Shown here: positions 264 through 615 of the stretch, piece by piece
How the letters are laid out: each line of letters opens with the position of its first letter
Position numbering within the stretch: the first letter of the stretch is position 1
Origin: Escherichia coli
GTDB taxonomy: Bacteria > Pseudomonadota > Gammaproteobacteria > Enterobacterales > Enterobacteriaceae
Length of the DNA stretch: 2,353 nucleotides
Assembly: GCF_003334335.1 (NCBI RefSeq)
Contig: NZ_QOWQ01000089.1
Reading direction: 5' to 3' (one strand)
The notes under the pieces: generated by a model
The model's database searches: none
What the model was told of the DNA's origin: nothing
The model's input: only the letters and a program-made list of their open reading frames with translations
Program-made: the position numbers and the translations under genes

Positions 264-597
264 AAACCGGCCAAGGATAATCCGCTGAAGATTTGCCGGT
301 GGCTAAAGGGGCCAAGCCACCAATTTACGTAATTAGCCACAGAGATACAATATTTTAGTTTACTTATGTATTTCTGAAGCATGTCTTTGCGCAGTATCGT
401 CGCCGTATTCCCACATGAACAGAGACCGCAGCCCTACCGGGAGACTCCTCTGCGCGAGTGTGCGGGGATAATCAAAAACGATACACACCGGGGTTTACCG
501 CGTTAACGGAGCGCGGCGTTGTCCCCTCATGGTCGCTGGTCCGGTGCGATGGTGGAAGAAACTGGATTTTGTTGCAACTGACAATCATTATCATTTT

Positions 598-615
598 GTC
601 GGGTCCTTTCCGGCA
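598..615. other. cosQ-like element upstream of cosN (approximate position)
   Basis: The block gggtcctttccgg (601-613) sits about 17-30 bp upstream of the cosN nick and is the same as the lambda right-end sequence I recall (GGGTCCTTTCCGG...GTTACG). In lambda, cosQ lies in this position. Exact boundaries cannot be set from sequence alone. Confidence 0.3.

Follow-up and report, generated by a model that had tools for sequence, protein, structure and literature searches.

A conserved non-coding element with maintained base pairs between the lysis and packaging modules of lambdoid phages

What lies between the lysis and packaging genes of a lambdoid phage when no accessory gene can be found there? 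The question is raised by a 2,353-nt stretch of an Escherichia coli genome (contig NZ_QOWQ01000089.1, hereafter the window), which as a whole is the Rz/Rz1–cos–nu1–A junction of a lambdoid phage and is 99.9% identical to Escherichia phage PhiR5_1 (PV340545.1 24,886-27,238). The Rz stop codon and cosN are separated by 367 bp in the window. In lambda the distance is 2,075 bp, from the end of Rz at 46,427 to that of the genome at 48,502, and includes bor, lambdap78 and lambdap79. An original prediction, made from the sequence alone, had described a compact spacer free of accessory (moron) genes, with no convincing open reading frame (ORF), a GC-rich stretch at ~400-530 and inverted repeats that could be RNA structures in the late transcript or a weak terminator. 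It had overlooked that the GC-rich stretch, rather than being an effect of base composition, forms a discrete element of 180 nt that is widely conserved. We tentatively read this element, with a confidence that falls somewhat short of even, as a structured RNA domain of the late (pR') transcript that is carried on the sense strand and acts in cis.

A conserved 180-nt element lies between Rz and cos

Similarity searches divided the spacer into three parts: a lineage-restricted flank (264-387), the conserved element (388-567) and a cosQ-proximal segment (568-630). The borders of the element are sharp. Among 81 distinct copies, column conservation rises from ~0.4-0.6 to >0.9 at position 388, and drops again after 566. 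The contrast in composition with the AT-rich cosB was also as described, the GC content being 0.58-0.60 over 401-550 and 0.28-0.29 over 651-800 in the cosB region.

Among 5,426 complete E. coli genomes, 1,851 carry the element, at a total of 4,466 places and with up to nine copies per genome; 398 phage records contain it too. No RefSeq feature lies under the 4,466 E. coli copies. A covariance model was built from 40 non-redundant copies. When this was applied to 100 viral loci, exactly one full-length copy was found in each, except for two in PhiR46_1. The model placed the lambda copy at 46,866-47,034, between bor and lambdap78. The copy in the K-12 prophage DLP12 is at 579,007-579,176, between borD and ybcV, and that of VT1-Sakai follows Rz by 10 nt. 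In podoviruses of the VT2-Sakai/933W type, bor precedes the element by 116 nt, and a small terminase gene, here an unrelated one, follows it after 113 nt. Shiga toxin (Stx) phages of both tail types thus carry the element. It was missing in HK97, HK022, P22 and one prophage with an HNH-terminase. Beyond these, a scan of genome contigs gave genuine matches only in E. albertii and in three near-identical contigs (205-214 bits), two of them from metagenome-assembled genomes labelled 'Proteobacteria bacterium' and the third a 351-bp contig of a Pseudomonas yangonensis assembly. The presence of the element in these three is probably due to contamination with E. coli or phage DNA, or to misbinning.

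Concerning known RNA families, a cmscan with Rfam 15 at E values up to 10 gave no match in 264-630; six weak matches elsewhere in the window were all far below their gathering scores. The invariant core of the element had no match in the searchable literature, and nothing relevant to the element was found in the literature on lambda ribosome profiling or on borD/ybcV.

The element is always oriented in the direction of Rz and the terminase genes, that is, of the late operon, and lies between the lysis and packaging modules. Its upstream neighbour is Rz (+) or bor (-), and its downstream neighbour is Nu1, another small terminase subunit, or a minus-strand DUF1398 gene or ylcI, whose stop codon is located -1 to 15 nt from the 3' edge of the element. 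The accessory genes of other phages are arranged around it, with bor upstream and DUF1398/lambdap78, ybcW/lambdap79 and ylcI downstream. The presence of accessory genes on both sides accounts for the 2 kb that lambda has at this junction. The window and lambda share the order of landmarks, the element, the cosQ-proximal sequence and cosN, and differ in that the window lacks bor, lambdap78 and lambdap79, and in that the lambda copy of the element has a shortened middle region without the middle hairpin. In the window the element lies 124 nt after Rz and 64 nt before cosN, and between Rz and cosN no feature is annotated in PhiR5_1 or in phages of the PhiR12 type. The description of a compact spacer with no annotated or conserved gene is therefore accurate for these 367 bp. 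The compactness itself is ordinary mosaicism, in a phage lacking the morons found next to the element in lambda and other phages.

The element does not encode a protein

The absence of a convincing ORF in the spacer was borne out by comparison, as no frame is conserved across relatives. Codon-position variation in the element is 0.121/0.121/0.128, revealing no codon periodicity, and copies differ in length by non-multiples of three. The synonymous fraction in all six frames is 0.25-0.37, compared to 0.23-0.28 expected at random. The frames of the element gave no NCBIfam match, and the annotation pipeline PGAP made no gene call on thousands of E. coli copies. A conserved small protein in relatives would have counted against the original prediction; the search for one favours the non-coding reading.

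Individual candidates were examined and rejected. The + strand ORF at 381-506 is interrupted by TAA in most relatives. A role as a leader for translation of a downstream ORF does not suit 63 of 89 contexts, in which there is either no start codon or an ORF of fewer than 30 codons. Two further frames are those on which the case for a small protein gene would depend, namely the 81-aa + strand ORF B85 of 933W-type phages and a minus-strand frame of ~26-51 aa beginning GTG-CIVFDYPRTLAQRS... (CIVFDY). In VT2-Sakai and NC_004913 the first of these extends across the element, and most copies have the second open over 33-46 codons. Neither is maintained. For ORF B85, an ATG is missing in 64 of 76 copies and the frame is not kept, the invariant bases GGTGGAAGAAAC being read as GGRN in some copies and as WWKK in others. 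In the lambda type only ~20 codons of the minus-strand frame are left, and the substitutions in this frame number 20 synonymous versus 41 non-synonymous. Taking these results together with the six-frame and annotation data above, we regard a small protein gene as very improbable.

ORF B85 has nevertheless entered phage annotation. It seeds the PHROG family phrog_6954, named 'Rz-like spanin' (VT2-Sakai, 2493-2738 of its stretch; NC_004913.3 58,327-58,572, Stx1_p164). By eye, the ORF has no obvious transmembrane segment or lipobox, and phrog_6954 is probably a propagated annotation error, a false gene family.

Base pairs are maintained, and the late-transcript strand is favoured

Pairs were counted on the consensus fold, to which the third inverted repeat of the original prediction (498-502/512-516) and its outer helix were added; the helices are given in Table 1. 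Paired cells amounted to 96.5%, and double-sided changes were present in 11 of 40 pairs, compared to 3.4±1.3 in shuffles (0/500) and 3-6 in slid registers. With 57 distinct copies there were 13 pairs with double-sided changes, compared to 5.1±1.3, and 0/500 shuffles on all five measures, in an alignment that had been fitted to the model and so leans toward it. Among single pairs, 395/483 is U-A in 19 copies, U-G in 17 and C-G in 2, pair 443/448 is G-C in 16 and A-U in 15, and pair 543/563 is G-C in 20, U-A in 8 and G-U in 7. The helix of the 3' hairpin accumulates 9 double Watson-Crick changes, with 30 G·U cells and 5 A·C cells. The stem of the middle hairpin is kept with differing sequences in most variant classes (CCGCG/CGCGG, CACGT/ACGTG and CTG.TGC/GCA.CAG). 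Pairs are thus maintained, with compensatory changes above controls, as expected of a structured RNA. Shared descent alone is a weaker explanation than usual for the co-varying columns, because recombination inside the element is frequent (see below).

Which strand is the relevant one was addressed with helices picked strand-symmetrically, by Watson-Crick complementarity in the consensus alone. The ratio of G·U to A·C cells was ~165:53 in well-kept helices, compared to 72:77 in poorly kept ones. The energy of the consensus fold is -29.0 kcal/mol on the + strand and -12.4 on the minus strand, and no minus-strand gene is present near the element in the window. These results moderately favour the + strand, the sense of the late transcript.

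The suggestion of RNA structures in the late transcript therefore stands in part. The third hairpin belongs to the conserved element, whose pairs show compensatory changes and the + strand G·U bias; hairpins 1 and 2, which lie upstream of the element, are not maintained. As for whether any structure is conserved at all, the pairs kept with compensatory changes favour the structured reading.

The same conservation might instead reflect the binding of a protein of host or phage origin, such as a nucleoid protein or a regulator acting at the lysis/packaging boundary, to the element as a duplex-DNA platform, with the invariant stretches as contacts. We consider this quite improbable. It would suit the invariant GATAATCAAAAACGAT and GGAAGAAAC, the GTATCG-like motifs repeated at 394-400 and 405-411, with an inverted one at 478-484, and a fold without special thermodynamic stability. 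On the other hand, 180 bp at ~90% conservation far exceeds what a binding site needs, and neither covariation nor a G·U bias is expected at a duplex-DNA site. By eye, without a statistical scan, the consensus sequences of IHF, DnaA, Fis, CRP, LexA, ops and Chi had only partial matches, and Chi-like octamers in the 3' loop are not conserved. Nor is the element part of cos or of a packaging signal, because it lies 1.4 kb from cos in lambda and is common to phages with unrelated terminases. Loops of the CsrA type were rejected too: GGA motifs occur 5 times in the 180 nt, with ~3 expected, and those in the middle loop are not conserved.

A 20-nt complementarity (70%) was also noticed between 524-543 and the cosN region at 629-648. 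This is probably due to chance, because the lambda copy lacks the stretch.

No promoter or terminator of its own accompanies the element

No recurrent sigma-70-like site was found on either strand of the element, with at most 9 of 81 copies sharing any 5-nt bin. In 264-630 there is no intrinsic terminator; the 3' hairpin of the element has a 15-nt loop. This agrees with the earlier remark that no clear U-tract follows the hairpins, and leaves no footing for the weak terminator that had been proposed, as a U-rich tail follows the 3' hairpin in just 10 of 79 copies.

These results bear on the possibility that the element is an independent small RNA (sRNA) gene, or that it is excised from the late transcript as a trans-acting RNA with host targets, in the manner of prophage anti-sRNAs. 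The element is a discrete unit of ~180 nt with structured ends and is present in many copies in pathogenic E. coli; sRNAs are abundant in prophages (PMC4104026). In the lineage of the window, and only there, a promoter-like sequence at 324-351 points into the element, and TTTTGTTG (567-574) follows the 3' hairpin. Judging from these two signals, which are not conserved across the family, the phage of the window might produce a discrete RNA of ~210 nt.

Against an sRNA stand the missing recurrent promoter and U-rich tail, and the lack of any match in the element to the Rfam models of AgvB, AsxR, Esr41 and STnc100. Hfq cross-linking (CRAC) data revealed no orphan peak at the Sakai Sp15 copy of the element (2,919,084-2,919,262), in a catalogue that represents uninduced enterohaemorrhagic E. 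coli (EHEC) and Hfq-bound RNA only. The candidates EcOnc15, EcOnc06, EcOnc04 and EcOnc13 all map to other contexts, and the AgvB, AsxR and Pas sRNAs map elsewhere as well. AgvB and AsxR are located 3' of PR' (PMC4104026) and the Pas sRNAs near Q and the holin gene (bioRxiv 10.64898/2026.05.13.724894). The element resembles these prophage Hfq-binding sRNAs in being multi-copy, non-coding and intergenic in the lambdoid prophages of EHEC and enteropathogenic E. coli. The sRNAs are 51-60 nt or otherwise short and have their own promoters and terminators (PMC4104026; bioRxiv 10.64898/2026.05.13.724894), whereas the element is 180 nt long, without promoter, terminator or Hfq-CRAC peak. An sRNA is, in our judgement, a shade less probable still than the DNA platform.

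The element recombines internally and marks a module boundary

The divergence of the element was compared with that of its flanks. In a comparison in which the whole Rz gene is 79% identical and its 4-fold-degenerate sites ~54% identical, the element is ~89% identical; where Nu1 is ~97% identical, the element is just ~82%. The 5', middle and 3' sequence types occur in almost all combinations, and all four gametes are seen at 42% of informative site pairs. The element thus recombines internally and reassorts relative to both flanks.

Comparative genomics of lambdoid phages has described, within the idea of modular evolution, conserved 'linker' or boundary sequences between gene modules. The element is like these in being a conserved segment with non-homologous, reassorting flanks and frequent internal exchange, and differs in that such linkers are short, while the element is much longer and displays compensatory pairing and a strand bias. 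The chief alternative to an RNA function is that the element is a linker at the level of DNA, whose homology persists through viable hybrids or gene conversion among co-resident prophages. We consider this rather unlikely, and it is nonetheless the rival that deserves most attention. The decoupled divergence, the free combination of types and the four-gamete pairs are all in its favour. So are the non-homologous replacements and moron insertions that start exactly at the element edges, the two copies that bracket a moron cassette in PhiR46_1, and the presence of up to nine copies per genome. Selection for recombinability is weak, however, and a linker leaves unexplained the maintained pairing with compensatory changes, the strand-biased G·U variants, the fixed full length and the invariant unpaired stretches. 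Reassorting flanks with exchange inside are what was found at this boundary; any conserved segment acts as a crossover site and would behave in this way, so that the finding does not discriminate and is compatible with an RNA function too.

Several observations concern the edges of the element. The ends of DUF1398/ybcV/lambdap78 and of ylcI fall within a few bases of its 3' edge in unrelated prophages (lambda 47,034-47,042), and this edge looks like a precise, reused insertion junction. In PhiR46_1, two full-length direct copies (716-897 and 2499-2681 of its stretch) bracket a cassette of ~1.6 kb of hypothetical genes, an arrangement that would be the expected product of unequal exchange between phages differing in moron content. 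One other copy (6531-6560 of its stretch) carries an 11-nt tandem duplication, GCCGTATCGTC, at the 5' edge, within the 5' arm of the closing helix.

In VT2-Sakai, the minus strand between bor and the element (2437-2454 of its stretch) contains TGTTTAGGGTTTGTTTAA, a perfect PhoP box of direct repeats (TGTTTA-N5-TGTTTA) located upstream of bor. This agrees with the activation of K-12 borD by PhoP. As the PhoP box lies between bor and the element, the bor promoter can be placed, from its sequence, outside the conserved element.

From lambda biology, late transcription is expected to run across the stretch from Rz to cos. In a CRISPR interference study of lambda with dCas12a, knock-down of lambdap79 (+) was scored as essential, and that of the minus-strand genes bor and lambdap78 was not (PMC10695390, Table 1). 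These scores fit a polar block of the late transcript in the region, and indicate that essential late transcription traverses this stretch of lambda.

Other features of the window

The features of the window are listed in Table 1. The full 124 nt of the flank between Rz and the element is restricted to few records, and its first 53-72 nt are found in ~480 genomes. The + strand fold of 264-387 had a z-score of -2.0, which no other part of the spacer reached; for the whole spacer the value was -0.4, not better than shuffles. The three inverted repeats of the original prediction are all present where they had been reported. Inverted repeats of 5, 6 and 7 bp in 264-600 only mildly exceed dinucleotide shuffles (for 7 bp, 3 compared to 0.8±1.1, with 26 of 300 shuffles at least as high), and an excess of the three short repeats over chance was not confirmed. 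In diverged relatives the 3' arm of hairpin 2 is replaced by other sequence, and the few changes in hairpin 1 break pairs rather than compensate. On their own, the listed hairpins are weak evidence.

At the downstream end, it is the stretch 568-642 alone that corresponds to a lambda-type cos, with the 12-base GGGCGGCGACCT and a cosQ-like GGGTCCT ~30 bp upstream. The 12 bases are identical in PhiR12_1, and are those of the left cohesive end of lambda. Window positions 579-613 align to lambda 48,452-48,485 with 88.6% identity; the role of cosQ is known from work on lambda. A perfect 7-bp inverted repeat (CGGGTCC at 600-606, GGACCCG at 619-625) brackets the cosQ-like sequence just upstream of cosN, and its second arm is missing in lambda and PhiR12_1. 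A scan of the window for tRNA and tmRNA found none.

Table 1. Features of the 2,353-nt window (all on the + strand)
Feature	Position	Strand	Basis or remark
Rz (i-spanin) gene, 3' part	1-263	+	Stop TAA 261-263; 'endopeptidase Rz' in PhiR5_1 annotation
Rz1 ORF, embedded in Rz	16-201	+	ORF list
Lineage-restricted Rz 3' flank	264-387	+	Full 124 nt in 6 phage records and 16 E. coli genomes
Hairpin 1	266-274/292-300	+	Inverted-repeat search
Hairpin 2	298-304/315-321	+	Inverted-repeat search
Alternative pairing in flank	299-306/333-340	+	Within 264-387
Promoter-like match TTTACG-16-TACAAT (sigma-70-like)	324-351	+	Promoter scan; not conserved
Conserved non-coding element, ~180 nt (GC-rich stretch)	388-567	+	Sharp conservation borders
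5' domain	394-484	+	Consensus fold and pair counts
Closing helix	394-400/478-484	+	Consensus fold
Second helix	406-412/464-470 plus 414-416/460-462	+	Consensus fold
Inner helices	431-435/455-459 and 440-443/448-451	+	Consensus fold
Invariant unpaired stretch GATAATCAAAAACGAT	467-482	+	Consensus fold and pair counts
Variable middle hairpin	491-525 (outer 491-493/523-525, inner 498-502/512-516)	+	Inner helix is the third inverted repeat of the original prediction
3' hairpin GTCCGGT/ACTGGAT	539-567 (539-545/561-567)	+	Purine-rich loop with invariant GGAAGAAAC
Pre-cos segment with cosQ-like GGGTCCT at 601-607	568-630	+	Shared with lambda-type cos phages
cosN cohesive-end sequence GGGCGGCGACCT	631-642	+	Direct sequence reading
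nu1 (small terminase subunit)	819-1367	+	ORF; PhiR5_1 annotation
A gene (large terminase subunit)	Start 1339, runs off window	+	Start derived from reading frame

Discussion

The results describe a non-coding element with fixed orientation and position in the late operon, whose pairs are maintained with a bias toward the strand of the late transcript. In the structured RNA domain that we tentatively propose, a closed 5' domain of several helices would be followed by a variable middle hairpin and a 3' hairpin, and the invariant single-stranded stretches GAUAAUCAAAAACGAU and GGAAGAAAC may be contact sites. RNA rather than DNA would be the functional form, and the domain would have a cis-acting role on the late transcript, such as that of a determinant of processing or stability, or of an insulator at the untranslated boundary between lysis and packaging genes.

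A number of points weigh against this proposal. HK97, HK022 and P22 do without the element, which is thus not essential to lambdoid late expression, and conservation combined with reassortment would also be expected of a DNA-level recombination linker. The structure that was tested derives in part from the same alignment. Independent compensatory events are few, and several belong to one clade only, such as the U-A pairs at 543/563. Folded as a single sequence, 386-568 has z-scores of +0.23 (+) and +0.30 (-), no better than shuffles. The middle hairpin has a mean z-score of -0.64 and is lost in the lambda type, and in a competing helix, 458-463/483-488, 19 A·C versus 2 G·U cells point to the minus strand. 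The lack of an Hfq-CRAC peak and the lean of the larger alignment, both mentioned above, belong to the same side of the account.

Cis-acting structured RNAs are familiar in phages from the put antiterminator RNAs of HK022 and the boxB of lambda nut. The element resembles them as a non-coding, sense-strand, multi-hairpin sequence that forms part of a long phage transcript and lacks its own promoter and terminator. It differs in showing no similarity in sequence or model, in its late-operon location a long way from the promoter, and in that HK022 itself lacks the element; any effect of the element on transcription is putative. A stronger version of our proposal would make the element a functional RNA of the lambdoid late operon that has so far gone unrecognised, either a cis processing, stability or insulator domain that sets lysis versus packaging expression, or a released RNA that acts on a host factor. 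We consider this version unlikely, and somewhat more so than the linker.

Whatever its function, a sharply bounded, conserved non-coding block has gone unannotated in lambda and E. coli K-12, among the best-studied genomes, and in most Shiga-toxin phages, and a likely false gene family, phrog_6954, is exposed in phage annotation. Should the element be only a recombination linker, it would mark a preferred crossover point for reshuffling, in Stx phages, of the lysis/toxin modules relative to the packaging modules. As a functional RNA in the late transcript, it would add a regulatory part to a textbook operon, and altering it would then change the yield of phages, including Shiga-toxin phages.

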